DNA of 64,000 bases. Origin: an uncultured Gemmataceae bacterium (lineage in GTDB: Bacteria > Planctomycetota > Planctomycetia > Gemmatales > Gemmataceae). Every line of letters begins with the position of its first letter. The stretch's first letter is position 1. The notes under the pieces were generated by a model. That model searched no databases, was not told the DNA's origin, and saw only the letters and a program-made list of their open reading frames with translations. The stretch lies in assembly GCA_963747575.1 (NCBI GenBank), contig CAVVFU010000003.1, forward strand, positions 269,557 through 333,556, in the 5' to 3' direction. Of this stretch, positions 22,041 to 57,253 are shown piece by piece. The translations under genes and the position numbers were made by a program.

Positions 22041-22130
22041 CAAAAAGGGGTCAGGCACCTTTTGCCGGGCTCGCCCCGCTATTTCGAATGCGGAGGGTGC
22101 TTCGCACAAAAGGTGCCTGACCCCTTTTTG
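22041..22130. repeat. structured palindromic element (arms AAAAAGGGGTCAGGCACC / GGTGCCTGACCCCTTTTT, core containing GGGTGCTTCGCAC)
   Basis: Long inverted repeat with A/T-run flanks; related copies at 51158..51245, 56434..56510, 33484..33591. Confidence 0.6.
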
Positions 22131-22207
22131 AACCATGCCGCTGGAAACGAGATTGGGAAGGCTGTGACGATTTGGGAATCGCGTGCGGCCCATGAAAACG
22201 GCGCTGG

Positions 22208-23068
22208 CTACGCGCTTTGCGCCATTGGCCTGATTCTCCCAAATTGCCCATTTACCTCGCTCTCGGCAGCTGGCGAGGGCGCAAGCCGCAGCCAAACCTG
22301 CTCCAAATTGCCGGCGACCAGGTCCCAATCCGGCTGACGACTCGCCCAACCGCACTCGATGATGTCTACGTTCGGCGCCCCGAAGGCGTACTGAACAAGG
22401 GCTCCATCGTCGGGATGCAAGGCGACCGTCGTCAAGGCACTGGTGAACACGCATCGTTCCATACTCAAATACCTGCGCAGTTGCTTGGCCAGGTGCCAGC
22501 GTTGCACCAATTTCGTTTCGAGATCGAACCGGCTTTTTTGCAGGCGCGACTCGAGTTGATGGGCCATCGCCAACCAACGAATGCCGGGCAGTTTCCGCAG
22601 TGCCTTGGCGCAAAACGCCGACTCGCATTGCCACAAATCGACCGGATTCTGCGCGGCATGCTGACGCAAGGCTTGCCGGAATGCTCTGCCGCGGACATTC
22701 GGCTCGGTCCACGGTTGCAAGGAAAACAGGTTGGCCGCCAGGCGGGCATATAGGCCGATGCCGGATTGCGGTGGGGCCGCGCCATGGACGAGCACGGTGC
22801 GAATCCCCTGACTAAGGAGGTAAAGCTGAGCCCGCAAGGATTCGTTGCGGTCGTTGCTGGGCGGGCAGATGAGGGTGATGCGATGGCGCTTGGCCAAACG
22901 CAACGCCAGGTTGAGCGTTTGCGTCTGCTTGGGCGATCGGGCCGGATAGGGCGGCGCCTCGTCGACAAGCACGACGTCCAGCGGCCGCGCCGCGTTGTTG
23001 CCGGCGGCGGCTTGACCGGGAACGACGGAATCGGTCAGGATTGGAGTGGTGTTCACGATGGCCTCCAT
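22208..23068 (-). CDS. hypothetical protein, weak glycosyltransferase-family-4 N-terminal-domain-like
   Basis: VVLVDEAPPYPARSPKQTQTLNLALRLAKRHRITLI loosely resembles GT4 N-domain; no clear catalytic C-domain. Confidence 0.35.
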   Translation of the reverse strand: MEAIVNTTPILTDSVVPGQAAAGNNAARPLDVVLVDEAPPYPARSPKQTQTLNLALRLAKRHRITLICPPSNDRNESLRAQLYLLSQGIRTVLVHGAAPPQSGIGLYARLAANLFSLQPWTEPNVRGRAFRQALRQHAAQNPVDLWQCESAFCAKALRKLPGIRWLAMAHQLESRLQKSRFDLETKLVQRWHLAKQLRRYLSMERCVFTSALTTVALHPDDGALVQYAFGAPNVDIIECGWASRQPDWDLVAGNLEQVWLRLAPSPAAESEVNGQFGRIRPMAQSA

Positions 23069-23257
23069 GCATGACAACGAGCTTGTAGCACAGGCTTCCA
23101 GCCTTTGCCACGAAGGTGACAAGTGTACTGTCTCGCCGCTGGCGGTGTAAAGTGGAGTTGCGGACTCCTTGCCATCTGGGCGAAGGCGTGCCATAGTGAC
23201 AAGTGCGTATCGGCCGTTCCCGGCGTGAATTACGCAATAGTCAGGGAGGTCGCTGAG

Positions 23258-24019
23258 ATGTTACCGTTGATTCCTCCGCTGGCAGTTGACCAACCCAAGC
23301 GGGAGTCCGTGGATTGGGTCGATGACACTGAAAGCTCGCTTAATCCAGCCCCTATCGACATTTCGTCCATCAACCTTGGCCCCGCCATCCAGAAAGCTCG
23401 GCGACTGAATTTCTTTTTTTGCATTGTGTGTTTGCTTTCGTTGCTCATGGCCGGGGTATGCCTGTCCGTTTCGTGCTGTATCGCCGCCTTCACTCCACAG
23501 CCGAAAAACAAGGTAACTTACATTGGGCTGTGGGATCCCAATCTTGCGCCTCTCACCCCAGAAGAACAAGCAGCTCTTGACCGTCTTGACCGCGAAAATG
23601 CTAAAGTCGATGCAATGCGTGGATGTGGGGTATCATGTTCGCTGGCCATGTTGGGATTCGTTGTGCTCGGACTTTCGTACCCGTTGTTTCATGCGCGCCT
23701 GCGCCAACCGCCAAGGGCGATACCATTACCGAGGGGCGGGTTATGCAATTGCCACGCCCGCCCTTTTGTTTGTGCGGACCGGATTCGGCCTGAGCTTGCG
23801 GTGGTTGATCACCTTGCTCCTAATCTGACAGCCCTTAGCTCACCAGCGGAAACCCCTTCTCGCGCCAGCCGCGAATGCCGCCGTCCATCGACCAGATATT
23901 CGTGTAACCCATTTTCTGCAGATTATCCGCCGCCAGCGCCGAGCGAAAGCCGCCGCCGCAGTAGAGCACGATCAGGGCATCGAGCTGGGGAATCTGCTGC
24001 TCGACGTCGCGCTCGATGA
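23258..24019 (+). CDS. hypothetical membrane protein in an AT-rich patch (3' end uncertain)
   Basis: Two predicted TM helices (FFFCIVCLLSLLMAGVCLSV, SLAMLGFVVLGLSYPLF); base composition switches to GC-rich ~23830 where the ORF runs antisense into the rhodanese gene. Confidence 0.3.
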   Translation: MLPLIPPLAVDQPKRESVDWVDDTESSLNPAPIDISSINLGPAIQKARRLNFFFCIVCLLSLLMAGVCLSVSCCIAAFTPQPKNKVTYIGLWDPNLAPLTPEEQAALDRLDRENAKVDAMRGCGVSCSLAMLGFVVLGLSYPLFHARLRQPPRAIPLPRGGLCNCHARPFVCADRIRPELAVVDHLAPNLTALSSPAETPSRASRECRRPSTRYSCNPFSADYPPPAPSESRRRSRARSGHRAGESAARRRAR

Positions 24020-24206
24020 CGCCTTTGCCCATGTGGATCGCCTGCGGGAGATGGTCCTTCGCCCATTCGCTTTCTTCACGCACATCGACGAGATGAAACG
24101 TCTCCTTGCGGTCGAGCTTGGCCTTGACGTCGTCAATCGTCAGTTCGCGGACGCGCCGCTTGGTGTCGTGGCACAGTTGCTCAAAACGGGGGGAGTGCTT
24201 TGCCAT
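23835..24206 (-). CDS. single-domain rhodanese-like sulfurtransferase
   Basis: Rhodanese fold with active-site Cys loop VLYCGGGFRSA. Confidence 0.75.
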   Translation of the reverse strand: MAKHSPRFEQLCHDTKRRVRELTIDDVKAKLDRKETFHLVDVREESEWAKDHLPQAIHMGKGVIERDVEQQIPQLDALIVLYCGGGFRSALAADNLQKMGYTNIWSMDGGIRGWREKGFPLVS

Positions 24207-24346
24207 TTTTCGGGACTCCGTACATTCTCTTTAGCTGTTGTTGAGTCTTTTGTTGATTGTGGTGCGATCATTGTATGTATGAACCGAGCGTGAAGCCGCA
24301 AGCGGCCGAGCGCGAAGCCGCAAGCGGCTCGTGAGGAAGGTGAACC

Positions 24347-25651
<1,305 letters not shown>

Positions 25652-25657
<6 letters not shown>

Positions 25658-27166
25658 CATCGCCTGCACGACTCCGTCCATGGTGTAGGTTGCCGCTTCC
25701 GCTCCCACGGGCCAACCGAGTTCGCGGATTGCAGCGCTGGTCACCGGGCTGATGCTGACAATTCGCGGCCGTCCGGACCGCATCCGATCCAGGCACGCAT
25801 CATCCAGCAAACGCGCCAACGCCTTGGCGATATTGGAGCTGGTCAGCACCACGTCGTCAACTTCTCCTCGCCGCAGACGCTCCAGAACATGGGCGTCGTG
25901 TTCCACCGCGTCCACCTGGGAATAAACCCCCACCTGTTGCACATCGGCCACAGCACTCAACTCGTCGCGCAAAAGCTCACGCCCTCGATCCGCGCGTGCC
26001 AGCAAAACTCGTTTACCAACGACGTGCGGTTTCAAGGCCGCGGCCAGGCTTTCACTGCGATACTCATCCGGGACCAGGTCGGGGTTGAGATGATAGCCGC
26101 GCAGCGCCGCGGCAGTGCTCGGCCCGATCGCAGCCAGTCGCAGGTGGCCCAGCGCACGCAGATCGCGGCCGCATAGGGGCAGACGACCGAGGAACGAATG
26201 AACGCCGTTGACGCTGGTGAATACCAACCAGTGATAGTCCCCCAGTCGCTCGATGACGGCATCCACCGGCGCCCAATCCAACGGCGGGCCAATCTCGACC
26301 ACCGGGAGCAACAGCGGCACGGCGCCCAACTCTTCGAGTCGCCCCGCCAGCTCGGCGGCCTGACCGCGCGGCCGGCATAACAAGATACGCCGGCCGCGCA
26401 ACGGCAAGCTGTCAAACCACGCCAAATCCTGACGCAGCGCGACGACGGGGCCGATCAGCACCAACGCCGGCGAGGTCAGCCCTGCCGCCTTGACTGCATC
26501 GGCAATGCCGCCGAGCGTGCCCGTGATGGTGCGTTGCTCGGGCGTGGTGCCGGCATGGATGGCCGCGGCGGGAGTGTCGCCGGCTTTGCCGTGGCCGATC
26601 AGCGTCTGGGCAATCGCCGCCAGGCGGGCCATGCCCATGTAAATCGCCAGGGTGCCGGGGAAACTCGCAAGAGCTTTCCAGTCGACGTGCTCCTCGCCCT
26701 TGTCCGGATTTTCGTGGCCGGTGACGAATGCCACGCCGCTGGCGAAAGTGCGATGCGTCAGGGGAATGCCTGCAAAAGCGGCAGCGCCAGGCGCGGCGGT
26801 CACGCCCGGCACCACTTCAAAGGGAATGCCGGCGTCATGCAAGGCCTGGGCCTCCTCGCCGCCCCGGCCGAACATGAACGGATCGCCGCCCTTGAGACGC
26901 ACCACGCATTGGCCCCGGCGGGCGGCCTCGATCAGCTTCTCCTGGATAAAGCTGTAGCGCTCGACATGGCATGGGCCAAGCTCGGTGACGCAAATGCGCT
27001 CGGCGTGGGCTGGGGCAAAGTCGAGCATGCGCACCGGCACCAGGCGGTCATAAACCACCACGTCGGCTCGGCGGAGGCATTCGACGGCACGCAGCGTCAG
27101 CAGGCCAGGATGACCGGGGCCGGCGCCGACCAGGAAAACGCGAGGTAATTCCATAGCAGTAGGCAC
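25652..27166 (-). CDS. cobA-hemD: bifunctional uroporphyrinogen-III C-methyltransferase / uroporphyrinogen-III synthase
   Basis: N-terminal SUMT ([28 protein letters not shown]), C-terminal HemD-like domain. Confidence 0.85.
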
Positions 27167-27396
27167 ACTCCGGGCTTTGATGCGAAATACCCGTGAAACG
27201 CTGAATTACGTCTCAGGCGGTGGTATTTCGTATCAGGGCGAAAATGGCGTCGGGCCGACACGGTTTCGTCACCGGCATTGTACTTGACAAGGAGGCAACG
27301 GACACGACAATGTTGGCATGAGTAGGGACTCAAAAATAGCCCTGGCCTTGTTAATCGTCGGGTGGCTTTTGGTGTGGGACAAAAGGAGGGATTTCA

Positions 27397-27897
27397 ATGA
27401 GCATTCTGGTTCAGCGTTATTTCAAGCGTTCTCGTGCAGTCGTGGATCTGGCAGAGGAATGGAAAATTCACCACGAATACGCGATGCTTGTTTTGGATCT
27501 CGAAGAGCTTATTTGCGAGTGTATCGAATTAGGAAAACTGGCCACGCATGTTTGGACCTCACTTGCTGATCTGCTTGTTACCGCGAAAATAACCGAAATC
27601 GACGAGGTTGGCGACAAATTTCGGATGGCAGTTGAGAGAACAAAAGAAGCGCTCGCGCTAGTCCAGCAAGGCGTCGTCAAGGCAAAAAAGGATTACAAAA
27701 TCGACAAAGCCGACGAACTCTTGGAGACCATGCATGCCATCGAAAGCATGTCGGAGGATTTTGAAAAAGTGTGGCCAAAAGCGAATGAGCAAATGGCGAA
27801 AGAGGCACTAGAGGACTATCAAAGGGGAGATTTCAAGGACTCCGGAGAGCTTCTCGCCAATGCGCAAGGCTATAGTTCCGAAAAGAATCTCAATTGA
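27397..27897 (+). CDS. hypothetical protein on a low-GC islet
   Basis: 166-aa acidic/helical ORF in an AT-rich ~700 bp segment flanked by copies of the GGCACAC..GTGTGCC repeat (27168..27182 half copy, 27905..27932 full copy). Confidence 0.5.
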   Translation: MSILVQRYFKRSRAVVDLAEEWKIHHEYAMLVLDLEELICECIELGKLATHVWTSLADLLVTAKITEIDEVGDKFRMAVERTKEALALVQQGVVKAKKDYKIDKADELLETMHAIESMSEDFEKVWPKANEQMAKEALEDYQRGDFKDSGELLANAQGYSSEKNLN

Positions 27898-27904
27898 AAC
27901 GCTA

Positions 27905-27932
27905 AACGGCACACGGAGTGTGCCTACTACTA
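27905..27932. repeat. single copy AAACGGCACACGGAGTGTGCCTACTACTA of the 33-bp repeat family, just downstream of ligA stop
   Basis: Identical palindrome to units at 13538..13633; partial inverted arm GTAGGCACACTCCG at 27168..27182 on the other side of the low-GC islet. Confidence 0.5.
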
Positions 27933-27937
27933 TGTGC

Positions 27938-30277
<2,340 letters not shown>

Positions 30278-30331
30278 GCGGGTTTACTTCTCATGATTTG
30301 CTCGAAGGACTCGGTGGGCGTAAGGCCACGC

Positions 30332-31098: not shown

Positions 31099-31196
31099 GA
31101 ATTATCCTGACGTGCAGGGTTCAAGGGACACTACGAGTTAAGTATATCCGAAATTGACTTTTTCAGCAGTGCGCTCGATCAGGTTGCCGCGCTGCC

Positions 31197-32804: not shown

Positions 32805-32814
32805 GGTTGCTCCT

Positions 32815-33390: not shown

Positions 33391-33483
33391 GGGTGCACCT
33401 CCGTTCACCAACGGGCCGGGCCGAATGGTTTGCGCCCGCAGGTAATTCGCTGGGGAGCTGTCGATCTTTGCTTTGTTGCCCTA

Positions 33484-33591
33484 AAAAAAGGGGAAAGGCC
33501 CCGTTGCGGGAACGGCACAGGCTGGAAGCCTGTGCTACAGGTAGCACAGGCTTCCAGCCTGTGCCGCTTCGCACAGCGGGGCCTGTCCCCC
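33484..33591. repeat. nested palindromic element (arms AAAAAAAGGGGAAAGGCCCCG / CGGGGCCTGTCCCCCT; inner CACAGGCTGGAAGCCTGTG x2)
   Basis: Shares arm sequences with the 56434 copy and the GTCAGGC/GCCTGAC-type inner hairpin with 10653..10679 and 57188..57253. Confidence 0.5.
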
Positions 33592-34746
33592 TATAGCAAT
33601 TCGCGAATCGGCGCCGCGTCAACGAGCGGCACGGATAGCCCACCGGGCACCGGCAACTGGGTTGCTGGATCAATGCCCAGGCAATGGTAAATGGTTGCCG
33701 CCACTTCCGGGGGACTTACCGGCCGCTCACGCGGCTCGGCTCCCCAGGCATCGGAGGAGCCGATCACCTGGCCGCCACGGATGCCGCCGCCGGCGAGCAG
33801 GATTGACCAGACGCCAGGCCAATGATCGCGGCCGCCGCGCGGGTTCAAACACGGCGTGCGGCCGAACTCGCCCATCGCCACCACCAGCGTCGTATCCAAA
33901 AGCCCGCGCTGATGCAAGTCTTCCAAGAGGGCCGAATAGGCCCGATCGAACAGGGGGCAGAGCGTGGTGCGGTAATCATCCAGGCAGGAATCGAGGGAGT
34001 CGCCATCCGCATGGCTGTCCCATGTCACCTTGTTGAACACCGTGTCGAACATGTTGACCGTGACGATTCCCACGCCGCGCTCCACGAGGCGGCGGGCATG
34101 CAGGCATGAGCGGCCAAATTGATTCAAGCCGTAACGACTCGCCGCAGGGTCTGACCGATCGACTGTGCATGGTCAGAGGTTCGTGCCGTGGTCCAAGAAA
34201 CGCAGCGTCCTGGCCGTGGCTGAGGTCCGCGCCGGTGTCGCCAATTGGCCCCGGAAGAATGACGTGGGATGATGTCCCACGCAGATACGACAACACCGTG
34301 CCGTAGTGCGGGTGGGTTGAGCCCGACTTGAAGACGCGCCCCGTCTGCATCAATTGCAGGCCCGTTTCATGGATTGCCGCCTCTTCATGGTGCAGCGAAC
34401 GCACAATGGCGAAGCGATCCGCCATCTTGGCCATCAGCGGGAAATGCTCGCAAACATCGATTCCGGGAACGGCTGTGCGTATGGGCCTGAATGGGCCGCG
34501 GATGTGGCTGGGAGCATTCGGCTTCAAATCCCAGGTGTCGAGCTGACTGGGGCCGCCCACAAGGATTAGCAGGATGCAATGCTTCGCCTGCCCGCCGCCG
34601 CTTTGAGCTTGGAGAACACCACTGCTAACAAGCGTGGCAGCCCCCACGGCGCTGATGCGCAGGAAATCACGGCGATTCAAGGCACCACAAGGTCGACGGC
34701 TTAGAGAATTCAACATGCTTGACGTCTCCCCTGCCGCGCGGACCAA
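33591..34746 (-). CDS. DUF1501 (sulfatase-like) protein with Tat signal, one frameshift near 34100
   Basis: RRDFLRISAVGAATL twin-arginine motif; DUF1501 N-part in ORF 33976..34746 and C-part (DHWPGVWSILLAGGGIRGGQVIGSSD) in ORF 33591..34127. Confidence 0.75.
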
Positions 34747-44641: not shown

Positions 44642-44743
44642 GACCAAGGCGGACCCGAACAGCCGGAGGTCCGAGCTGACAAATGGTTCCTGCCACTTTT
44701 TTTCCCGAGAATACGGCTCACGTTTGAATGACCGGCAACTGAG

Positions 44744-47516: not shown

Positions 47517-47679
47517 GCCTTTCCAACACCGACCAGCCCGATCCCCTCACGACAACCAGTGTGCCGTATTGTATCGCGTCTTTGCATCGTTCGCAGCTGG
47601 AAATCCAAAACGAGCGGCGTACACTGTGCCATGGCGACACTGCCTGGCAAGGTTCGAAAATACCCAAGAGAAAGAAACG

Positions 47680-49338
47680 ATGCCTGTGAACACTCGCGAT
47701 TGCTCGCGGCCATTCCGCACCTGGCCCACCATCACGCTGTCGCTCATTGTCCTGATCGGCCTGGGCGCGTTTCTCCAACCGAAATCCGCAACCGCTCAGT
47801 CGAAAGCCGACCTCCTGCGCGGCGAATACGGCCGCTATCGCGCCAACAGCCATCTGCTTTACTACCATCTCGACGTGCGTGTCGATCCCGAAAAGAAAAG
47901 GATCAGCGGCAAGAACACCATCCGCTTCAAGATGCTCAAGGACGATAACCGCATCCAGCTCGACCTGCATGCCGCGCTCGCCATCGACAAAATCCTCCTC
48001 GGCGAAACCGAGCTCATGTACCAGCGCGACAGCGGCGCGGTCTTCGTTGACTTTCCGGAAACGCTGAAGGCGGGCCGCGACGTTTCCATTGATTTTTACT
48101 ACTCCGGCACGCCCACCCAGGGGGGCCGATTCGGCGGCTTCACATTCGGCAAGGATCCGAAGGGCCGGCACTGGATTTTTACCTCCTGCGAGGGTCAAGG
48201 CGCCAGTGTCTGGTGGCCGAACAAGGACCAGTGGCGCGACAAGGTCGAGTCGATGGACATCAGCGTGGCGATCCCCAACGGCTTGGTGGATGTTTCCAAC
48301 GGAAAATTCGTCGGCAAAAAAGACCTCGGCGACGGCTTTACCCGCTGGGATTGGCACGTGCACTATCCCATCAACAATTACTGTGTTTCGTTGAATATCG
48401 GCGCCTATGAGCATTTCTCCGAAAAGCTGGGTGATCTGGACATGGACTTCTACGCCCTCCCCGAAGACCTGGACCGTGCCAGGATACAATTCGCCCAGGC
48501 CAGGGGAATGCTCGAGGCGTTTCAGCACTACTTCGGCGAGTATCCATTCAAGAAAGACGGTTACAAGCTCATTCAGGTGCCCTATTCCGGCATGGAGCAT
48601 CAGAGTGCCGTGACCTATGGCAACGGCTTCAAGAACGGCTACCTGGGTCGCGATTGGACGGGCGTCGGCATCAGCCCGCGTTTCGATTTCATCATCATTC
48701 ACGAAAGTGGCCACGAGTGGTTCGGCAACAGCGTCAGCGCCGCCGACCGCTCCGATATGTGGATTCACGAAGGCTGGACGACCTATCTCGAAAGCCTGTA
48801 CGTCGAGCACCGCTGGGGCAAGGCCGACGCCCTCAAGTACCTGAGCGGTTACAAGTCGAAAGTGAAGAATACCCAACCGATTGTGCCCCGCCGCGGCATC
48901 AATGCCAACCCGCCTGCGGACCAATATTTCAAAGGCGCCCTCTTCATCAACACGCTGCGCAGCATCGTGGACGACGACAAACGCTGGTGGACGCTGCTGC
49001 GTGACTTCTACCAGCACTTCAAGTACAAGGCGATCATGACCGAGGACGTCGTCGAGTATTTCAACAAGCAAACCGGCAAGAACCTGACGCCGATTTTCGA
49101 CCAGTATCTGCGTCACGCCGCGTTGCCGGTCCTGGAGCTGAAATTCGGCGAGGGCGAGCTTAGCTATCGCTGGAAGGCCGATGAGAAGGGGTTTGCCATG
49201 CCGATCCGCGTCGGCACGCAAGGATAGCTGGCAGACCATTACACCCACGGCCGATTGGCAGTCGCTGAAATCGCCGCTTCCGAAGGACCAATTTCAGGTC
49301 GCTACCGACTTGTATTACGTGGTGGTGAACAAGTCGTA
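47680..49338 (+). CDS. secreted M1-family zinc metallopeptidase, frameshift ~49220 before the last ~35 codons
   Basis: Signal peptide; HEXXH-E18-E (IIHESGHEWFGN ... WIHEGWTTY); C-terminus continues SWQTITPTADWQSLKSPLPKDQFQVATDLYYVVVNKS* in another frame. Confidence 0.85.
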
Positions 49339-49426
49339 GGGCGACGTCACGGATGAAACGATAGCCGATTTTGGCGAGTGCTCACTCGACACAGTGGGTG
49401 CTCGTTTACCGGTGAGAACTTTAAGC

Positions 49427-50203
49427 ATGAACGACGACACCGACCTCGGCGGCCACGCCATTGCTTTCCCGGCAACACAAGGTTACCTTGTCCGGGCGGC
49501 CGCCGACCCGGATCCGGCCGTCCGCAGGCAAGCATATGAGACGCTGCTCTCAGCATACTGGAAACCCGTTTACAAGTATCTCCGGGCCCACTGGGGCCGA
49601 GGCAACGAAGACGCCAAGGATCTCACTCAGGCATTTTTCGTGGAAGTGCTGGAAAAGGGCTTCTTCACGCACTTCGACGCCTCCCGGGCGCGTTTTCGCA
49701 CTTTTGTCCGACTCTGTGTTGACGGATTCGTCGCCAAGGATCTTCGGGCGGCCAATCGTCAGAAGCGAGGAGGCCTTGTCCGGTTGCTACCGCTTGTTGA
49801 TAGCAGTAACGAACTGGAATTGGTGCGCCACGAACAGCTCGCCGGCACGGATCCTGACGAATTCTTTCGAAGCGAATGGCTCCGCGAGTTATTCGCGTCG
49901 GCCGTCGAGGATCTGCGGCAGTGGTGTGAAGAGGCCGGGAAACAGATTCATTTCACAATGTTCCAGCGCTATGATTTGCTTGAACCCTCCACCGGGGCCG
50001 AAGGCGCGGGCGAGACCGCCGCACCGAGCTATGCGGAAATGGCCGAGGAGTTCGGCTTGCCGACGACTCAGGTGACGAATTACCTTGCTCTGGCTCGCCG
50101 GCAATTCCGGCGCCTGGTGCTTGAGCGGCTTCGTGCCGCCACCGGCACCGCGGAGGAGTATCAGCAAGAGGTAGACCGGTTGTTCGGAGAACGCGGCCCA
50201 TGA
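49427..50203 (+). CDS. ECF-type RNA polymerase sigma factor
   Basis: Region 2 (YETLLSAYWKPVYKYL..DAKDLTQAFF) and region 4 (APSYAEMAEEFGLPTTQVTNYL); stop overlaps kinase start (ATGA at 50200..50206). Confidence 0.75.
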   Translation: MNDDTDLGGHAIAFPATQGYLVRAAADPDPAVRRQAYETLLSAYWKPVYKYLRAHWGRGNEDAKDLTQAFFVEVLEKGFFTHFDASRARFRTFVRLCVDGFVAKDLRAANRQKRGGLVRLLPLVDSSNELELVRHEQLAGTDPDEFFRSEWLRELFASAVEDLRQWCEEAGKQIHFTMFQRYDLLEPSTGAEGAGETAAPSYAEMAEEFGLPTTQVTNYLALARRQFRRLVLERLRAATGTAEEYQQEVDRLFGERGP

Positions 50204-51154
50204 GTGAGCTTTCCGACGCGGCCCTGGCTCGCCTGTGCAAGATCGCGGCCGCGCCGGATCCGGAGGAACCTCGCTACGAGTTGGCCGAGCCGATTGGCCG
50301 CGGCGGCATGGGTACCGTCTTCCGCGCCCACGACCGCGTGCTCGACCGCACTGTGGCCCTCAAGGTTCTGCATACAGCGCCCGCCGACGCCGGCGCGGAT
50401 GCTGCGGGAGGCTCGCGTCCTTGCCCGAGTCGAACACCCCGGCATTGTCCCCGTCCACGATGCCGGCGAGTTGCCCGATGGCCGTTATTACTGCGCCATG
50501 AAACTGGTGCACGGCCGCAGGCTCGACGAGGAGGCAGTGCTGCAGACCGGTCTGGAAGAACGGCTTCGACTATTTCAAAAAATCTGCGAGGCCGTGGCAT
50601 TTGCCCATGCTCGGGGTGTGCTGCACCGCGACCTGAAGCCGCAGAACGTCATGGTCGGCGAATTTGGCGAAGTCCTGGTCATGGACTGGGGGGTTGCCAA
50701 GGAAATCGGCAATCGCCCCGCCGATGCCTGTCCCGGGACCGTCGTCGGCACACCCGGCTACATGGCGCCAGAACAGGCGCGAGGCGAATTGGACCGGATC
50801 GACGAACGTGCCGACGTCTACGGTCTGGGCGGTATCCTTTATTTCCTCCTTGCGGGGCGCCCAGCCAATAGGGGGCCGGGGACCGTTTGGCATTGGCAGG
50901 GCGTGCCCACCCCGCGGCCATTGAAATCGGTGTGTCTCAAAGCGCTGGCGTCCGAACCGCACGACCGCCACGCCAGCGTCACGGAGCTGGCGGGGGAAAT
51001 CACGGATTTCCTGGCCCATCGGCCCATCCGGTCTCACCCGGAGGGAGTCGTGGGAGCGGCTTTGCGCCTGGCCGCGAAGTACCGCATGCCCGTGGTGCTG
51101 ATCCTTGCTTACGTCGTCATGCGTGTTTTGTTGCTGATTTTCGCCAACACCTAA
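50204..51154 (+). CDS. serine/threonine protein kinase with C-terminal TM anchor (frame break ~50400)
   Basis: GxGxxG (IGRGGMGTV), VALK, HRDLKPQNV, DWG, GTPGYMAPE; C-terminal helix PVVLILAYVVMRVLLLIF; N-lobe beta3 region in ORF 50200..50871. Confidence 0.75.
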   Translation: MSFPTRPWLACARSRPRRIRRNLATSWPSRLAAAAWVPSSAPTTACSTALWPSRFCIQRPPTPARMLREARVLARVEHPGIVPVHDAGELPDGRYYCAMKLVHGRRLDEEAVLQTGLEERLRLFQKICEAVAFAHARGVLHRDLKPQNVMVGEFGEVLVMDWGVAKEIGNRPADACPGTVVGTPGYMAPEQARGELDRIDERADVYGLGGILYFLLAGRPANRGPGTVWHWQGVPTPRPLKSVCLKALASEPHDRHASVTELAGEITDFLAHRPIRSHPEGVVGAALRLAAKYRMPVVLILAYVVMRVLLLIFANT

Positions 51155-51157
51155 GAG

Positions 51158-51245
51158 CCTATCCGAAAAAGGGGTCAGGCACCGTTGTGCGAAGCACCCT
51201 CCGGGCCGTTCCGGCAACGGTGCCTGACCCCTTTTTCGGATAGGT
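51158..51245. repeat. structured palindromic element: 30-bp perfect arms CCTATCCGAAAAAGGGGTCAGGCACCGTTG around core TGCGAAGCACCCTCCGGGCCGTTCCGG
   Basis: Core nearly identical to the 56434..56510 copy while arm bases differ with compensatory changes (GGTCAGGCACC/GGTGCCTGACC vs GGACAGGCCCC/GGGGCCTGTCC). Confidence 0.6.
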
Positions 51246-51311
51246 TCTAAAGGAATTTCGCCCTTGGGGTAATAGAACAAAAGACCGCGCTACCACCAAC
51301 TGGAGTTTTCC

Positions 51312-51686
51312 ATGAAAAAATGGCAACTTGGCATCATCCTGGGCGGAATACTGGGGATTTTTGACGGCTTGACGGCACCGCTATCGGCGCCGGAGACGGC
51401 GCCGGAACTTGGGGGCATTGTGGTCGGCTCGGTAATCAAGGGCATTATCGCGGGCGCGATCATCGGCTTCTTCGCCCACAAGGTTGTCTCGGTGAAACTC
51501 GGCATCATCTTCGGCCTTGTCGTCGGTGCTCTGTTGGCTTTTGGCGTGGCCTTGATGCAGTACATCGGATTGGGTCGAGTCTACTTCTGGCAAATCATGC
51601 TGCCGGGAGCCGTGGTCGGCTTGATCGTTGGCTATGTTACTCAAACTCACGGCCAAAGGGCGGCAACCAAGGGAGAGCAATTATGA
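51312..51686 (+). CDS. small integral membrane protein (4 predicted TM helices, Gly-rich)
   Basis: WQLGIILGGILGIF, IVVGSVIKGIIAGAIIGFF, LGIIFGLVVGALLAFGVAL, IMLPGAVVGLIVGYV. Confidence 0.5.
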   Translation: MKKWQLGIILGGILGIFDGLTAPLSAPETAPELGGIVVGSVIKGIIAGAIIGFFAHKVVSVKLGIIFGLVVGALLAFGVALMQYIGLGRVYFWQIMLPGAVVGLIVGYVTQTHGQRAATKGEQL

Positions 51687-52201
51687 GCTTGATAAAGCGG
51701 TCAATGGTGGCAATAGTATTACTGGCGGCGGTCGTCCCAATCCGTGCCGGCGGGCAGACGGCAGACGACAAACTGGCCGCGCTGGCCCGCTTTGCCGGCG
51801 AATGGGAAGTAGCAGGCAAATGGGCCGACGGCCAAACCTTGCAAGCCCGCGGCATCTACGCCTGGAGCCTGGGCAAAAAAATCATGACAACTAAAACCAT
51901 GGTGCGCGACGGCGACAAGGAGTACCAGCGCTACGAGGGCGTGATGGCCTGGCACCCAGAGAAGAAGAGTCTCTTCCAGATCAGCTTTGCCTTCGATGGC
52001 ACCATTACCGAGACGATCATGGAAAGCAAGGACGCCAACACCCTGCACATTGGTTGGGTGCCCTTTACTCCAGAAAAGCTGTCGTCAGTCCGTCAGGTGA
52101 TCCGCTTCCTCGACAACGATAGCTTTCAGTGGATCGTGTCGGTCAAGGATGGGGAAGCGTGGAAGCAATTGATCGACGCCACCTGGAAGCGGAAAAGGTG
52201 A
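51683..52201 (+). CDS. secreted hypothetical protein
   Basis: Signal peptide MSLIKRSMVAIVLLAAVVPIRAGG; start overlaps previous stop (ATGA). Confidence 0.5.
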   Translation: MSLIKRSMVAIVLLAAVVPIRAGGQTADDKLAALARFAGEWEVAGKWADGQTLQARGIYAWSLGKKIMTTKTMVRDGDKEYQRYEGVMAWHPEKKSLFQISFAFDGTITETIMESKDANTLHIGWVPFTPEKLSSVRQVIRFLDNDSFQWIVSVKDGEAWKQLIDATWKRKR

Positions 52202-52216
52202 GCGGCGAAGCCGCTT

Positions 52217-53863
52217 GTGCGGAAAGCTTTTTTGGGTTACCTCACCTGCATGGATCACCCCATGCCCGTCCAACCCACACCTGAACGACAACCCGCATCC
52301 AGGCGGTCGGTGCGTCGCGTTGCCGTCGTCCTCCTGGCCCTGTTCGCCGTGAGCTTAGCCCTCGCGTGGTGGTTGACGCCTGTACGACCTTACGCGACCT
52401 TGAAACTCGATGACACCTGTGGTCTGTTCCTTTTCTCTCCTGATGGCACCATGCTCGTTACCTCGGGTAGTGGAGTGGGTGCCGGCCGATCCGCTGGGCC
52501 GCTTCGGGTTTGGGACGTCGCGACTGGACGCGAGCGCTTTGTCCTGGCCATTGGCTGGAAAGCCATTGAAACGGTGGCCTTTTCCCCTGACAGCGCGTTG
52601 GTCGCTGCCCACGAAAAGGAAGCCGAACTCACCCTGTGGAATTTGAATACCGGCGAAGAAGCGGCAAGTCTTCGGCCTCCAACGAAAGTTGGCCTTTGGT
52701 CCGCGCCCTGGGTGGCTTTCCGATTTTCCCCCGATGGACGTTTTGTCGTTTTTCCGAACTACAGAGATTGGCCGAAAAAGGAATACGTCACGTTTTGGAA
52801 CATCGAAACCTGGCAAGAACAGTTTACGGTCGAGGGCTCCTTCGACACGCTGGCTTTCGCACCTGATGGAAATACGTTTGGGTCATTCCACCGAAAGGAC
52901 ATTCGCAGGGACACCGAAGTCCTCCTTTGGAAAATCGGCAAGGATGCTGTAGTGTTAAAACAGCTTCGAACTCCAGCCACCATCGTTGCATTTTCGCCGG
53001 ACTTGCGGACGTTTGCCGCCGCCGCCGATCTGCCGGATGGCAATGGCGAGGTTGTCCTGTTCGACATCATGACAGGCGAAAGGCGTTGGTCAGTGACGTT
53101 TAAGGCATTTGTTGGCGAGCGATTGCAGCGGCTTTCATTTAGTGCCAACGGCAAAACTCTTGGGGCGTATGGCGCCAGCCCCACGCAGAGTTTGCAAACG
53201 ACGTTGTGGGATGTAACCTCGACCCCAAAGGAGATTGCGTCGTTCTCCGATTACGCGCACTTCTTACCTAACGCCAAGTGGGTGATAATCCCGATGTCAG
53301 CAGGCGCTAAACTCATCCACCTTTCAGCGCCGGAACGTGGCATCGACCTCGTCGTCAATGGCGATTTTGGACGGTTTGGACCCTGGGCCATGGACACGGA
53401 GGGCCAAGAGTCTCAGTCCTCGTTTTCTCGGGACAGCAAGATGTTCATTGCAAAGGGAATTAGTCAACTTGGACAGGAACCGTTTCTGGCGAAATGGCTG
53501 CCTGACAAATTCAACCCCTTTCCAGACAGTCCAGGCGGTCCAATCGTCCGCGTGTGGCAAACCGCCGATGGCCGGCAACTGCGGGCTTTTCCCCAATGCA
53601 CCGACGCCGAGTTTTCGCCCGACGGCAAAGTCCTGGCAACGCTCCGGGACGGCAAAGCAATTGACCTTTGGAAGCTTCCGTTCCGCGTGTCGCCTGGGCG
53701 GGTAGTTGGCTGGTCAGTAGTTATCTGGTTGATCGCCGTGCCGATTTGCTGGGTAGCCTTCACAGCAATCAGAATGGTGGTATCACCCAGCGGCTGGCTT
53801 TTTCGCTTTATGAAACCCAAGGGTGAAAGAAGGAAATCGACCAAGGGCGCGTCGGGCAAGTAG
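52217..53863 (+). CDS. membrane-anchored WD40/beta-propeller protein (N- and C-terminal TM helices)
   Basis: VAVVLLALFAVSLALAWWL helix, seven or more WD-like blades (FSPDG.. repeats), C-terminal WSVVIWLIAVPICWVAF helix. Confidence 0.7.
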   Translation: MRKAFLGYLTCMDHPMPVQPTPERQPASRRSVRRVAVVLLALFAVSLALAWWLTPVRPYATLKLDDTCGLFLFSPDGTMLVTSGSGVGAGRSAGPLRVWDVATGRERFVLAIGWKAIETVAFSPDSALVAAHEKEAELTLWNLNTGEEAASLRPPTKVGLWSAPWVAFRFSPDGRFVVFPNYRDWPKKEYVTFWNIETWQEQFTVEGSFDTLAFAPDGNTFGSFHRKDIRRDTEVLLWKIGKDAVVLKQLRTPATIVAFSPDLRTFAAAADLPDGNGEVVLFDIMTGERRWSVTFKAFVGERLQRLSFSANGKTLGAYGASPTQSLQTTLWDVTSTPKEIASFSDYAHFLPNAKWVIIPMSAGAKLIHLSAPERGIDLVVNGDFGRFGPWAMDTEGQESQSSFSRDSKMFIAKGISQLGQEPFLAKWLPDKFNPFPDSPGGPIVRVWQTADGRQLRAFPQCTDAEFSPDGKVLATLRDGKAIDLWKLPFRVSPGRVVGWSVVIWLIAVPICWVAFTAIRMVVSPSGWLFRFMKPKGERRKSTKGASGK

Positions 53864-53871
53864 TTCCAAGT

Positions 53872-54306
53872 TCAGATCGTTGAACCCCGTCCTTCCTCCA
53901 CGACAGTTTCTGCCGCTTCCCATAGCGCAGGGGACACATCTGCCGGGCAATGCTCGGTGACCTGCTTCAAACACTCGTCTGCGGATTGCCCCAAGACCAA
54001 GGCCATTGCAGCGGCAGCGATGACTGGCGAACGGCTCAGTCCCGCCCCACAGCAGACAAGAGTAGGCATGTCCATTTTCAGCAAGTTTCCTACGGTCGTA
54101 ATCGCCAGCTGAAGCAGCTTCCTGTCGTTGCCTGGCCCGTCTACCAACGGAAAGCGGCAAAAAACCAAGTCACGAGGCACATCCTTGACTGGCTCCTCGG
54201 CGGCAAGGTGGACCACGGCTTGAATGCCAGCGTCGAATATGCGGCGAAAGTTTCGGCCATCACCAGCATGACCCAACCAAAGTAGATGGTGCGGAATCGG
54301 TCGCAT
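53872..54306 (-). CDS. dual-specificity/tyrosine protein phosphatase
   Basis: CX5R P-loop VCCGAGLSRSP and upstream Asp (FPLVDG). Confidence 0.65.
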   Translation of the reverse strand: MRPIPHHLLWLGHAGDGRNFRRIFDAGIQAVVHLAAEEPVKDVPRDLVFCRFPLVDGPGNDRKLLQLAITTVGNLLKMDMPTLVCCGAGLSRSPVIAAAAMALVLGQSADECLKQVTEHCPADVSPALWEAAETVVEEGRGSTI

Positions 54307-54367
54307 GACGATACTCCGGCCCAATGGGTAACTGGAAGGGGCATTGCAGGGTCAACTTCGTCTCACC

Positions 54368-54586
54368 CTACTTGATCGCAACACTTACAAGGCCCGCCTC
54401 GATACTCGGTTTTGGGATGGTCTCTCCTCGTGCACTCAAGCCTTCGATGTGGTACGCGACGGCCTCACGGATAACTCGCTCGAGCTGCTTGCGCGTCTTT
54501 GCTGTCGCGATACAACCGGGAAGGTCTGGTACGTAGGCCGACCAGTTGCGCTTGCCCGATTCGTAGATTACGGTGTACTGCTTCAT
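54368..54586 (-). CDS. hicB: HicB-family antitoxin
   Basis: MKQYTVIYESGKRNWSAYVPDLPGCIATAKTRKQLERVIREAV typical HicB/UPF0150. Confidence 0.75.
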   Translation of the reverse strand: MKQYTVIYESGKRNWSAYVPDLPGCIATAKTRKQLERVIREAVAYHIEGLSARGETIPKPSIEAGLVSVAIK

Positions 54587-54777
54587 TTTTCGTCCTCCAA
54601 ATCTGCCTGGCGCAGAACGCTCTTCAAGGTCTTGGGATGAATATCGTCATTTTGATGACCCGAGACCGTTACTGTGCCAGGTTTGCTCGGGTGGAACAGC
54701 TGGCGATGGCTCCCGCGTGTTCGGTCCAAAACCCATCCATCCTCTTCCAGCATCTTCGGCAATGCTCTGACTTTCAA
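54583..54777 (-). CDS. hicA: HicA-family toxin (probable TTG start)
   Basis: KVRALPKMLEEDGWVLDRTRGSHRQLFHPSKPGTVTVSGHQNDDIHPKTLKSVLRQA with GSHRQxFHP..G.VTV..H signature; 4-nt overlap with hicB; in-frame alternative ATG at 54750. Confidence 0.7.
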   Translation of the reverse strand: MKVRALPKMLEEDGWVLDRTRGSHRQLFHPSKPGTVTVSGHQNDDIHPKTLKSVLRQADLEDEK

Positions 54778-54962
54778 GCCCCAGCCTCCAGTCCTTACGT
54801 ATTCGCCTTCGATTTCGCGGCGCCGGCAGTCCCCTGCGCCGCATCCGCCTTCTTCGCCAGCCGTACTGCTTCCTTCTTTGCCCGTTTCAAACGTGCGGTC
54901 CGCCGCGCTCCTGGTCGATTGGCTCCCATGATATCCTCCTCTTGCAAAAAATAAAAAAGTGA

Positions 54963-56208
54963 TCAAAACCGCAACTGTAATCGTCCCAACCTTGCCGCCG
55001 TCTCCGTCATCAGCCGATCTTCCTCCGCCTCGTCCTTGGCCAGATACGTCGCCGAGAAGCGCAAATACGCCCCGGCGTTGTCCCAGGGCACGCAGATGAC
55101 CGACTGCTCCTGAATCAGGAACTGCGAGGCCTCTTCGGCGTTGGCGAATGCCTTGTCGCCGCAGCCCTTCGGCGACGCGCACATACAGGAAATAGGTGCC
55201 GCCCGGCATCTTCGCCTGGAAGCCGACTTTGTTCAGCGCCGCGACCAGTTTCCGCAAGCGGCGGCGATACTTCTCCCGGATGCGGTCCGCCAACTCCGGA
55301 TGCTCCAGGGCGGCTCGGGCGGCCTGCTGGATCGCCATGAACTGGCCGGAATCGCTGTTGTCCTTGACGTCGGCAAAGGCCTGCACGATCTTCGGATGGC
55401 CGCACACGAACGCCATGCGCCAGCCGATCATGTTGAAGCCCTTCGACATCGAGTGAATCTCGACGCCGACTTCCCTGGCCCCGTCGACTTGCAGGAAACT
55501 CAGCGGCGGGCCGTCGTAAGCTGAGCAGGACGTGGGCCGCGTCCTGCACGACCACGATCCGGTTGGTCAGGGCGAAGTCGATGACGCGCTTATAGAAATC
55601 GCGCGTGGCCACCGCCCCGGTCGGGCTGTTGGGGTAGTTGATGACCAGCAGCTTGGCCCGCTTTCTGATGTCGGCAGGGATGCCGTGCAAGGTCGGGATA
55701 GAAGCCGTTTTCCTCGAGCAACGGCAAGTTGTGGACCTCGCCGCCGTAATACCTGGTGTGGGTGCCGGCGACCGGGTAGCCGGGCACGGTCATCAGCGTG
55801 ACGTCGCCGGGATTGATGAAGCAGGCCGGCAGCATGGCCAGGGCCGGCTTGGAGCCGATGGCGTGGTTGATCTCGGTGGCCGGGTCGAGCGTGACGCCGA
55901 AGACCTTCTTCATGAAGGCGGCGGCGGCGTCCTTGAAGCGCTGGATGCCGTTGTCGGCGTAGCCGCGGTTTTCGAGCTGGTCGACCTCGCGTTTGACCTC
56001 TTCGCGCACCAGCGGGATCGGCCATGTCGTCGTTTTCGCCGATGCCGAAGTCGAGCAGCTGGCGCTCGGGATGGGCGGCCAGCACGGCCCGCTTGGCCCG
56101 CTTGATCTTCTCGAACTTGTAGATTTCGGTGCCCTTGCCGTAGTTGACGCCGCCGATGCGCTCGGCGAAAAGGGTTTGGAACCAGGGGTCAGCTGTGGTG
56201 GTGCTCAT
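54963..56208 (-). CDS. class I/II aminotransferase (LL-diaminopimelate aminotransferase-like), fragmented over about five frames
   Basis: N-terminus ADPWFQTLFAERIGGVNYGKGTEIYKFEKIKRAKRAVLAAHPERQLLDFGIGENDD; conserved middle and C-terminal blocks (KLLVINYPNSPTG, RVAEGL..) in ORFs 55590..56009, 55115..55690, 54583..55449, 54963..55184. Confidence 0.7.
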
Positions 56209-56433
56209 GGTCGGCAGCCGGGAACCAGGTGTCTGAGGTTGTGAAAAAACGCGGACATGTATCAACTATACCGATTCGACAGGCCAGCTAACAGAGGGCG
56301 CCGGCGCCGAAGAGTCCGGCTGGGCGACACAATAATCCGCATAAATGACGCGCATGCCCTACCCCTGGCGGCGCGGCGCGGGTAAAATGGAGCGGAAAGG
56401 GTGCGCGCTTTTCGGCCGTGAAAGGCTCCAAAA

Positions 56434-56510
56434 AAAGGGGACAGGCCCCGTTGTGCGAAGCACCCTTCGGGCCGTTCCGGCAACGGGGCCTGTCCCCTTT
56501 TTTTGGAGCC
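56434..56510. repeat. structured palindromic element (arms GGCTCCAAAAAAAGGGGACAGGCCCCGTTG, core TGCGAAGCACCCTTCGGGCCGTTCCGG)
   Basis: See 51158..51245; lies in the divergent intergenic region between the aminotransferase and an ECF sigma gene and overlaps the sigma gene's leader. Confidence 0.6.
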
Positions 56511-56544
56511 TTTAAGTGAACTCGCAGGAGACGGGGAAACCAAC

Positions 56545-57174
56545 GTGCCGCTGACCAATGTGGATCGTGAACTGCTCAAGCGCTGCCTTGGCCACCAGCC
56601 GGGTTCGTGGAATGAATTTGTCGACCGCTTTCTGGGGTTGATTTACCATGTCATTAACCACGCTGGGCATCTGCGCAGCGTCACCTTGCGGGCCGAAGAG
56701 GTCGAGGATCTGGCGTCCGAGGTGTTGCTGCAGATCGTCGCCAACGATTACGCCGTGCTCCGCCAGTTTCGCAAGGAGAGCAGCCTGGCCACCTATCTGA
56801 CGGTGATCGCGCGGCGCATCAGCGTGCAAGCCCTGGCCAAGCGCCAGGCCAACCGGGAAGTGCAGCTGCAAGCCGACGGCAAACACCACGACCACGAGCC
56901 TGAAGAGCCGTCGCGCGGCGTTGGTCTGGAAACGCTGGAGGAAGTCGCCAAGCTGCTCAAGAAACTGCCCTCGCGCGAACGGCGCGTGGTGCGCCTGGCC
57001 TACCTGGAAGGCCGCAGCTACGAAGAAATCAGCACGCTGCTGGGCATTCCCGTCAACACGATTGGCCCCATCCTGAGCCGCGCCAAAAAGAAGTTGCGCG
57101 AGGGAGTCAAGAGCACTACCCCGCGGGCGTCGGGGCCGGCACGGCGCCCTGCACAACCCAAGCCGCCGGAGTAG
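56545..57174 (+). CDS. ECF-type RNA polymerase sigma factor (GTG start proposed)
   Basis: DRELLKRCLGHQPGSWNEFVDRF (region 2 start), YLTVIARRISV, region 4 LPSRERRVVRLAYLEGRSYEEISTLLGIPVNTIGPILSRAKKKLRE; the ORF-track start at 56503 is inside the palindromic element. Confidence 0.7.
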   Translation: MPLTNVDRELLKRCLGHQPGSWNEFVDRFLGLIYHVINHAGHLRSVTLRAEEVEDLASEVLLQIVANDYAVLRQFRKESSLATYLTVIARRISVQALAKRQANREVQLQADGKHHDHEPEEPSRGVGLETLEEVAKLLKKLPSRERRVVRLAYLEGRSYEEISTLLGIPVNTIGPILSRAKKKLREGVKSTTPRASGPARRPAQPKPPE

Positions 57175-57187
57175 AATGCCGGCATTC

Positions 57188-57253
57188 GTAGGTCAGCCTT
57201 TCCAGGCTGACATGTCTCTGGCAGTTTAAGTCAGGCTGGAAAGCCTGACCTAC
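57188..57253. repeat. pair of GTCAG(C/G)C-loop-G(G/C)CTGAC hairpins in inverted arrangement (GTAGGTCAGCCTTTCCAGGCTGAC ... GTCAGGCTGGAAAGCCTGACCTAC)
   Basis: Same hairpin motif as 10653..10679 (GCAGGTCAGGCTGGAAGCCTGACCTGC) and inner units of 33484..33591. Confidence 0.5.

Follow-up and report, generated by a model that had tools for sequence, protein, structure and literature searches.

Among the miniature inverted-repeat transposable elements (MITEs) of bacteria are the Correia or NEMIS repeats of Neisseria and the ERIC or IRU repeats of enterobacteria; in classical MITEs the terminal repeats, on which the transposase acts, are conserved and the interior drifts. To our knowledge, palindromic repeats that lie in frame within genes have been described mainly from Rickettsia, whose Rickettsia palindromic elements (RPEs) were reportedly described originally by Ogata et al. 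RPEs are interspersed repeats of 100-150 bp, abundant in intergenic and in protein-coding regions, with one insert in PheT (PMC1779305). Repetitive extragenic palindromic (REP) sequences that carry a GTAG or CGTC tag have been surveyed (PMC3733652). The only planctomycete hairpin repeat that we found in the searchable literature is the Rhodopirellula-1 motif, a repetitive hairpin with covariation for which the supplement to Weinberg et al. (2010; PMC2864571), in its account of the motif, leaves the status as an RNA unsettled on account of A-C pairs on both strands. Here we analyse a stretch of 64,000 nucleotides from an uncultured Gemmataceae bacterium (contig CAVVFU010000003.1, positions 269,557 to 333,556, of assembly GCA_963747575.1), referred to below as the window, in which an earlier note had proposed a family of palindromic elements as a candidate structured RNA or a novel REP class. 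We call these elements class 1, and all coordinates of window features count from the first letter of the window.

Class 1 is in all likelihood a non-autonomous mobile palindromic DNA repeat of Planctomycetia that behaves like a MITE and has the RPEs as its nearest analogue. It is read as selfish mobile DNA because its copies are dispersed and fall into lineage subfamilies, orthologous sites are empty, flanking duplications occur, copies lie in any orientation, phages carry it and it resides in frame in essential genes. A description of the family was not found in Rfam, Pfam or the literature that could be searched for the core sequence and for planctomycete repeats, and as these libraries are incomplete the word 'undescribed' is provisional; the literature matches to GTGCGAAGCAC concerned mostly nucleic-acid and polymerase methods, and none dealt with planctomycetes.

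Results

Sampling and anatomy of the element

Copies outside the window came from two public scans, one of which fixed only parts of both arms and the other only the core stems. The arm-anchored scan of species-representative genomes yielded at least 112 loci and the core-anchored scan at least 120 metagenome contigs and nine viral contigs; the working set comprises 127 distinct copies with a stem of at least 15 bp, among the matches listed, from planctomycete metagenome-assembled genomes (MAGs), metagenomes and phages. Fetched loci are given L numbers.

The element is about 75-110 bp long and G+C-rich. From the outside inwards it is made up of a subfamily-specific outer inverted module, a pair of A- and T-runs of 4-7 nt, a 13-nt G+C-rich arm that begins GGGG in most copies, a linker of 3-5 bp and a 29-nt core; this is a short unit with terminal inverted repeats, as in a MITE, the inverted repeat around the core measuring 25-35 bp. 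The core reads G-(TGC GNA GCA)(CCC NNN GGG)(CCG TNC CGG)-C and consists of three mini-hairpins without linkers, each of 9 nt (3 bp and a 3-nt loop), on top of the long stem that closes them. Among the core-anchored copies the loop of hairpin 1 is GNA in 116/127 copies, that of hairpin 2 is TNC (83) or GNA (34) in 117/127, and that of hairpin 3 is TNC in 121/127. The arm-anchored set, which put no constraint on the core, has nearly all of its core substitutions in the loops; the nine stem pairs of the core are near-invariant, the exceptions being one compensatory change from CCG/CGG to CCT/AGG (L094) and one wobble. The two strands of the core read nearly alike because loop 3 complements loop 1, and with a model built on the sense strand the window copies score 59-75 bits in antisense, against 72-95 bits in sense. 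A minimum-energy RNA fold of the core that pairs a GAA loop with a UUC loop was rejected, because no covariation links the loop variants: GCA, AAA and GGA all occur with TTC, and TCC occurs with GAA.

The arms are far more variable in sequence, 71 different 18-mers adjoining the core among the 127 copies. Their most conserved part in an alignment of 90 copies is the A-run (columns 4-7, 87-99% A) with its T partner (columns 71-73). Of the three outer modules in the window, GCATGGTTC and CTAAGAGCCTATCCG recur in other contigs and, because modules recur between loci, they belong to the element and not to its target.

Copies in the window

Four class-1 copies, three full and one rearranged, lie in the window, all of them intergenic. 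The three elements named in the earlier note are at the positions it gave and all match a covariance model built from 90 copies outside the window (72.1-94.7 bits), but their palindromes run beyond the ends it had marked, to 22033-22138, 51154-51248 and 56421-56513; the arms measure 32-34 nt and are 97-100% complementary, and the centres measure 27-42 nt. The sharing of arms (AAAAAGGGG(T/A)CAGGC(A/C)CC) and core (GTGCGAAGCACCCT(C/T)CG) that had been claimed for them was borne out, the arm motif GGGGWCAGGCMCC occurring nine times in the window against 0.54 expected. The copies at 51158 and 56434 have GGGCCGTTCCGGCAACGG in common and, where their arms differ, the changes in the opposite arm do match, as had been noted. 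One long hairpin is predicted for each window copy, whether as RNA or as DNA; the RNA folds have about -75 kcal/mol (z -11 to -13), with both strands equally foldable. The TCA-arm variant of copies 1 and 2 contains TGA.

Copy 1 (22033-22138, core on the minus strand; 72.1 bits at 22040-22131) has 32-nt arms that are 100% complementary and the outer-module subfamily GCATGGTTC/GAACCATGC, with the same module in L113, L157, L167, L186 and L190. Its mini-hairpin 1 (TGCGAAGCA) is intact, the region of hairpins 2 and 3 is about 16 nt longer, and the predicted RNA fold has -75 kcal/mol (z -11.9); it is flanked by two minus-strand genes, DUF2617 (21391-21984) and a GT4-like gene (22208-23194). Copy 2 (51146-51253, plus strand, palindrome 51154-51248; 94.3 bits at 51163-51239) has the outer module CCTAAGAGCCTATCCG, which recurs in L166, L017, L041 and L049, and is bracketed by the 9-mers ATTTTCGCC (51137-51145) and AATTTCGCC (51254-51262), a possible target-site duplication. 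The stop codon TAA of the upstream kinase gene (51152-51154) lies inside the outer module, and the kinase terminates at the same residue position as its orthologs; because its end matches theirs, the case for a duplication is uncertain here, and the closest of these orthologs are only about 63% identical, so that the empty site could not be reconstructed at the nucleotide level.

Copy 3 (56421-56513, plus strand; 94.7 bits at 56429-56505, E 3e-21) has 33-nt arms GGGGACAGGCCCC that are 100% complementary and the outer flank AAAGGCTCC/GGAGCCTTT. It lies in the 5' leader of an extracytoplasmic function (ECF) sigma gene whose GTG start codon is at 56545, with a conserved TAAAAT box (56383-56388) 32 nt upstream of the copy. 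Copy 4 (33478-33590, minus strand), which the earlier note had counted among related nested hairpins, is a true class-1 copy that has been rearranged. It has the arms GGGGGACAGGCCCC / GGGGCCTTTCCCC and a T-run on one side only, and it keeps hairpins 1 and 3 with a nested REP doublet of 54 nt (33513-33566) in place of the middle hairpin; read against copy 3, its minus strand is GGGGACAGGCCCCG(C/T)TGTGCGAAGC(insert)CCGTTCC(C/G)GCAACGGGGCCT. It abuts the stop codon of a DUF1501 gene (33591-34127).

Empty sites and flanking duplications

Copies are insertions, because orthologous empty sites exist. Six orthologous sigma loci (L242-L247; 80-83% amino acid identity) have the same order of aminotransferase, sigma and pyrF genes as the window, and the sigma start at 56545 is that of P0001 (100% identical). 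The intergenic region upstream of sigma measures 190-230 nt in these loci, which are without the element, against about 336 nt with copy 3. The alignment puts copy 3 in the presumed 5' leader of sigma, between a conserved GGCTAAAATGG box and the start codon; the earlier note, too, had seen it in the leader.

The sigma locus shows two further features. A motif upstream of the sigma gene, CCTACCCC ... GCGCGG(C/G)TAAAATGG (56355-56392), is conserved in L242-L247; it is probably the sigma promoter, with TAAAAT as a -10-like box, and possibly an autoregulated ECF promoter. The neighbouring aminotransferase gene (54966-56208, minus strand) aligns to its L242 ortholog (413 amino acids) in five pieces across three frames, and these frameshifts, at least four, make it either a pseudogene or a site of assembly indel errors; if they are assembly errors, homopolymer lengths in the window, including those of the A- and T-runs, are to be read cautiously.

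A second empty site was seen in phages, where related phages (L252 and L258, 86-89% amino acid identity) lack the element in their protease gene. When the flanks of 113 copies were compared with shuffled pairings, perfect direct repeats of 9 nt were found in eight cases against 0.3 expected and perfect direct repeats of 8 nt in 11 against 0.75 expected, clear duplications being CCGGCAAGG (L149), CCATTTCGG (L157), GCCGGGCTT (L179) and CGCCTTGACGCC (L193). Several in-frame inserts are flanked by duplicated tripeptides (GLR..GLR, GAE..GAE, GGL..GGL), which we read as the protein image of a 9-bp target duplication.

Copies within genes

All 127 copies were screened for open reading frames (ORFs) that read through the element and have a coding signal on either side of it in that frame. 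There were 25 such copies (20%), of which 13 lie in sense and 12 in antisense, and all six frames are used; some of these calls may be wrong. Pfam was run on ten of the ORFs. It placed the insert within a protein-kinase domain (L014, L142), the DNA polymerase III alpha domain of DnaE (L165), the B3/4 domain of PheT (B3_4; L172), a class II aminoacyl-tRNA synthetase core (L100) and an aminotransferase domain (L162), and in a linker of an SNF2 helicase (L153), YchF (L207) and a GlcD-like oxidase (L180). Compared with DnaE of E. coli (PDB 5fku), the L165 protein has 62 residues against 25 at the element segment (+37 amino acids). The S49 prohead-protease gene of L238 and of its identical relatives contains the element, the frame remains open through it, and the peptide RKGDRTLLCEAPSGPFRQKGPVPFSRSD is encoded.

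No stop codon occurs in any of the six frames in 53/90 copies, against 2.5/90 in shuffles that preserve the palindrome, a control that breaks the A/T runs and is somewhat harsh. Pfam had no family for the six encoded peptides. A census of proteins with a 32-residue query gave three small ORFs in a word-indexed search and 37 proteins, mostly of 50-200 amino acids, in a representative library clustered at 50%, the choice of query and the clustering making this census uninformative. Most of the database proteins that match the translated element (P0253-P0289) are hypothetical ORFs of 50-200 amino acids, and one, P0259 (371 amino acids), matches in seven stretches, which suggests that spurious small proteins are routinely called over these repeats by gene-finding programs.

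Hosts, phages and related hairpins

Selecting the arm-anchored set for the core of the window left 22 matches, all of them Planctomycetota MAGs among the matches listed; the named genomes among the matches listed bear the labels Pirellulaceae, Pirellulales, Thermoguttaceae, 'Planctomycetaceae' and Planctomycetia. Arm matches in other phyla are short GGGGCCnGGCCCC hairpins which look unrelated to class 1. Class-1 copies were also found in genuine tailed-phage contigs with terminase, portal, protease, major head and tape-measure genes; those of 64-66% G+C (L235 3419-3495, L238 2522-2608, L233 1461-1537) have the copy adjoining or within head-morphogenesis genes. Phages may carry the family between hosts.

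A second kind of hairpin, here 'class 2', was found in L002, L026, L029, L043, L063, L108 and about 50 further loci of Planctomycetota, including Phycisphaerae, among the matches listed. Its arms, GGGGACTGGCTCCGAGC ... GC(T/G)(C/A)GGTGCCTGTCCCC with two conserved T.T (or A.A) mismatches, are like those of class 1 and its interior is different, the centre of about 40 nt being not conserved; the flanks are GTTGAA/TTCAAC. Class-1 copies are themselves interrupted in the 3' arm or middle hairpin by other palindromic repeats (e.g. CCTTCGACAATGCTCAGGGCCGCCCTGAGG...) in L143, L148, L168, L188, L065 and L007, and partial tandem duplications of an arm occur in L219, L186 and L209; class-1 elements seem especially prone to nested insertion and slippage.

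Gene context and orientation

Gene calls were made with a self-trained codon-usage model, and intragenic copies were removed before contexts were counted. Of 65 classed elements, 42 lie between co-directional genes (26 in sense and 16 in antisense), 19 between divergent and four between convergent genes, the background being 418 intergenic regions (308 co-directional in both orientations, 62 divergent and 48 convergent); convergent sites are depleted and divergent ones enriched. The ratio of sense to antisense has p = 0.16 and becomes 17:6 with strict gene calls. In the window three copies lie between co-directional genes and one, that in the ECF sigma leader, is divergent; the earlier note had listed both of these locations correctly and convergent regions as well, where none of the four copies lies.

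These contexts bear on the idea that the element is a dispersed bidirectional intrinsic terminator which spreads as a supply of terminators. The element has the look of one, a G+C-rich stem directly followed by what would be a U-run in RNA, as the A-run and T-run abut the GGGG/CCCC base in at least 87% of copies. Three of the four copies in the window stand downstream of a gene on the same strand, and copies between co-directional genes mostly begin within about 30 nt of the upstream stop codon. However, the depletion of convergent regions (4/65) and the enrichment of divergent ones (19/65) are the opposite of what terminators would give, copies reside in dnaE, pheT, aminoacyl-tRNA synthetase and kinase genes and in the protease gene of a phage late operon, which needs read-through, and one stands between a -10-like box and the sigma start codon. 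The palindrome moreover extends past the T-run, which a terminator does not need. The idea as a whole is improbable and a primary role in termination unlikely, so the earlier view that these are 'not simply terminators' is upheld by the scarcity of convergent sites and by the copies within genes, in the leader and in the phage late operon. Where copies are transcribed, they may cause partial termination or be cleaved by RNase III.

No functional class and no recurrent neighbour family was apparent among 306 flanking ORFs. The top clusters are kinases, DUF1501 proteins and ECF sigma factors, all abundant in the phylum anyway, and none is a recurrent neighbour of transposase type.

Covariation of the arms

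Covariation was measured on an alignment of 90 core-anchored copies with 77 ungapped columns. In the 25-bp stem 23 pairs have changed on both sides, compensatory cells number 441 and the paired fraction of cells is 98.1%; every measure of stem covariation exceeds its value in 500 shuffles and in slid controls. One-sided changes of the G.U type make up less than 1% of the 2250 stem cells, against the 441 double changes. An RNA helix selected on one strand should tolerate G.U and avoid A.C, and a DNA palindrome should treat both alike; among 3428 stem pairs there were 41 G.T and 43 A.C mismatches. The arm covariation is by these measures strictly Watson-Crick and of DNA type, and neither the pseudo-symmetric core nor the weak orientation bias gives any indication of an RNA strand. 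Intragenic copies are paired at 98.7% and the rest at 97.2%.

The earlier note took the covariation to imply selection for the folded structure, and a structured non-coding or cis-regulatory RNA, for instance a protein-binding or stability element of untranslated regions, might seem to fit the very strong covariation of the long stem, the very stable predicted folds (z about -11 to -13), loops that recall stable RNA loops (GNA, C(UNCG)G and CUUG variants), the roughly 2:1 excess of sense copies between co-directional genes and the one copy in a 5' leader. Against this, pairs of G.U type are not favoured over A.C, hairpin 2 occurs with its loop in both orientations within a pseudo-symmetric core, antisense strands fit the sense model, copies are translated in six frames within essential genes, and the sites are polymorphic for the presence of the element and show target duplications. 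The orientation bias should be much stronger for a cis-acting RNA, and the association with particular gene classes that had been proposed as a check was absent among the flanking genes. An Rfam scan over the window returned no match at gathering thresholds, and at E<=10 only models of miRNA precursors appeared, with 19-44 bits against gathering scores of 69-150. As the covariation is no greater than the maintenance of a hairpin would bring about, the structured-RNA interpretation fails on the terms of the earlier note itself, and we consider an RNA of this kind very unlikely.

REP families and other repeats of the window

Besides class 1 the window is rich in REP sequences with a GTAG tag. 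A REPIN-like doublet (GTAGCACAGGCTTCCAGCCTGTGCC in inverted pair) at 33513-33566 is the one nested in copy 4 and scores 35.7 bits on both strands, as a generic hairpin only. A second doublet (GTAGGTCAGCC...GGCTGAC / GTCAGGC...GCCTGACCTAC; GTAGGTCAGCCTTTCCAGGCTGAC ... GTCAGGCTGGAAAGCCTGACCTAC) at 57188-57253 lies between the sigma gene and pyrF and is absent from the orthologs, in which the spacer between these genes ranges from an overlap to about 20 nt (L243-L247) or is 85 nt (L242), compared with 97 nt in the window. A single hairpin, GCAGGTCAGGCTGGAAGCCTGACCTGC (10653-10679), is related to the REP family of the second doublet and scores 10 bits with the class-1 model. The hairpins at 10653-10679, 33513-33566 and 57188-57253 belong to REP families separate from class 1, of the sort covered by the survey of tagged REPs (PMC3733652), so that the kinship with class 1 drawn in the earlier note does not extend to the first and last of them. 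A GTAG-tagged REP family, GTAGGCACACTCCGTGTGCCGT, has four tandem units of 33 nt (13505-13636), a perfect inverted doublet of 30 nt (21274-21342) and a copy at 27905-27970.

That class 1 is itself an ordinary REP or REPIN family moved by a REP-associated tyrosine transposase (RAYT) is very unlikely, for although the genome is REP-rich (GTAG hairpins or doublets at 13505-13636, 21274-21342, 27905-27970, 33513-33566 and 57188-57253) and an HUH enzyme recognising a folded single strand would explain arms that are free yet complementary, class-1 ends are an A-run and GGGG with no GTAG or CGTC tag, each copy forms one hairpin of 75-110 nt whose tip is complex, where REPs have hairpins of 20-40 nt in inverted pairs, a subset has flanking duplications of 8-12 bp, and no recurrent Y1-transposase-like neighbour was seen among the flanking ORFs. 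The description as a novel REP-like class nevertheless came near the mark, and the palindromic family with its conserved core and compensatory arm changes is real.

Other repeats were noted. The palindromic family CTCGTTCCCAAACTCCTGTTTGGGAACGAG occurs at 6554-6585 and 10210-10380 and includes an inverted pair of 56 nt (10213-10268 / 10325-10380), and an inverted repeat of 34 nt (CAAAGATGAAGGATGAGGGATCAGGGATGAATCG / complement), 82% complementary and with a purine-rich repetitive arm, lies at 3115-3196. An inverted repeat of 307 nt, 72% complementary (11433-11739 / 15556-15862), falls in the ORFs 11343-12209 (plus) and 15095-15919 (minus), which are probably paralogous genes in inverted orientation. 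At 62720-63998 there are at least eight tandem units of 162 nt (54 codons, 66-73% identity), presumably a repeated protein domain, in an ORF (62731-63999, plus) that runs off the end of the window.

Discussion

If class 1 is non-autonomous mobile DNA, as we think very probable, it would be moved in trans by an enzyme encoded elsewhere. We propose that the substrate of this enzyme, or of a copying process, is a single strand in folded form or a cruciform, and that recognition depends on the invariant core together with the base formed by the A-run and GGGG, not on the sequence of the arms. The invariant tip, with a stem and ends that are free yet complementary, speaks for a folded strand and against terminal sequences as what is recognised. 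Arms would then drift yet stay complementary, because it is the folded strand that would be recognised, and the strict complementarity may be reinforced at the DNA level by template switching or by correction of mismatches within the hairpin. For the host the copies would mostly be neutral passengers; when transcribed they would give RNA hairpins of 25-35 bp, possible substrates of RNase III or for termination, and when translated they would add a surface peptide of about 27 residues. More tentatively, the 29-nt core may be the recognition module of a mobilisation system that acts on a single strand once folded and not on terminal repeats, is specific to Planctomycetia and travels from lineage to lineage with their phages, and the family a second and independent case of protein-coding palindromes.

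Several observations weigh against reading class 1 as a mobile, MITE-like element. A clean target duplication is seen in only about 10-15% of copies and its length, 7-12 nt, is not uniform. At the phage protease site 88 nt have replaced 37 nt (net +51), the site shows no duplication and its right flank, CGCAGC, repeats the left one, GCTGCG, in inverted form, which is unlike simple cut-and-paste. Neither a transposase nor an autonomous parent, sought as arm pairs 0.25-5 kb apart, was found in the 1.6 Mb of fetched loci, and a conserved interior with variable ends is the opposite of a classical MITE. Each scan constrained part of the sequence (arms or core stems) and its counts are lower bounds, the gene contexts depend on a home-made codon-model gene caller, and the modest sense bias (26:16, up to 17:6) leaves scope for some effect at the RNA level. 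As to the inverted flanks, homogenisation of the arms at the DNA level could also produce the copy in the phage. That palindromic flanks are in general inverted copies of the target was rejected as a rule, as two of the three flanks in the window are recurrent modules; the one phage case fits, and such copies may occur.

A second, unrelated family of this kind would show that protein-coding palindromes are not tied to reductive intracellular genomes, and it gives many more copies for studying how proteins absorb inserts. Its inverted pattern of conservation, an invariant tip on a freely covarying stem, is a concrete clue to a mechanism of mobilisation that has yet to be established even for RPEs. 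If the core is indeed what is recognised, the family would keep adding peptides of about 27 residues to essential proteins of free-living bacteria. On the practical side, it is a source of false 'structured RNA' candidates and of spurious small ORFs in planctomycete annotation, and it probably causes assembly breaks.

Among the known systems, REPs and REPINs share with class 1 that they are high-copy extragenic palindromes, co-resident in the window, and one REPIN is nested in a class-1 copy; class 1 differs in having no GTAG or CGTC tag, in size and architecture, in its in-frame coding insertions and in some target duplications. The Rhodopirellula-1 motif, as the supplement describes it, has AAC...GUU ends and a variable loop, and both its sequence and its ends are unlike those of class 1 (PMC2864571). 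These AAC../..GUU ends and the variable loop resemble integron attC sites, going by that same description, and this is a resemblance only (PMC2864571). The ends RYYYAAC ... GTTRRRY of attC and Rhodopirellula-1 do not occur in class 1, and class 2 has the opposite arrangement, GTTGAA...TTCAAC. At the level of the core, d(GCGNAGC) is an extraordinarily stable DNA mini-hairpin (PMC13037366), and class-1 hairpin 1 is GCGAAGC, with GCGCAGC and GCGGAGC as variants, which matches that consensus exactly. This is a biophysical motif and not a genetic element, and by analogy with it the core may fold as single-stranded DNA.

Like MITEs, class 1 is non-autonomous, bounded by inverted repeats, dispersed and polymorphic for presence and absence, with direct repeats in a subset and a long hairpin if transcribed. 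Unlike them, it has an invariant interior with arms and outer modules that vary, its duplications are not of uniform length, and the 1.6 Mb of fetched loci held no parent insertion sequence. The RPEs come nearest. Both are short palindromic interspersed repeats that lie between genes and in frame in housekeeping genes, PheT in both cases, the host proteins tolerate the added peptide, there are lineage-specific subfamilies, and for neither is a mobilising enzyme known. Class 1 departs from RPEs in its hosts, which are free-living Planctomycetia with large genomes, an unrelated phylum, and their phages, and in being shorter (about 75-110 bp) and G+C-rich, with an invariant core of three mini-hairpins, freely covarying arms and six open frames. 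Judged on these likenesses and differences, its relation to RPEs is one of analogy, not of homology or membership.

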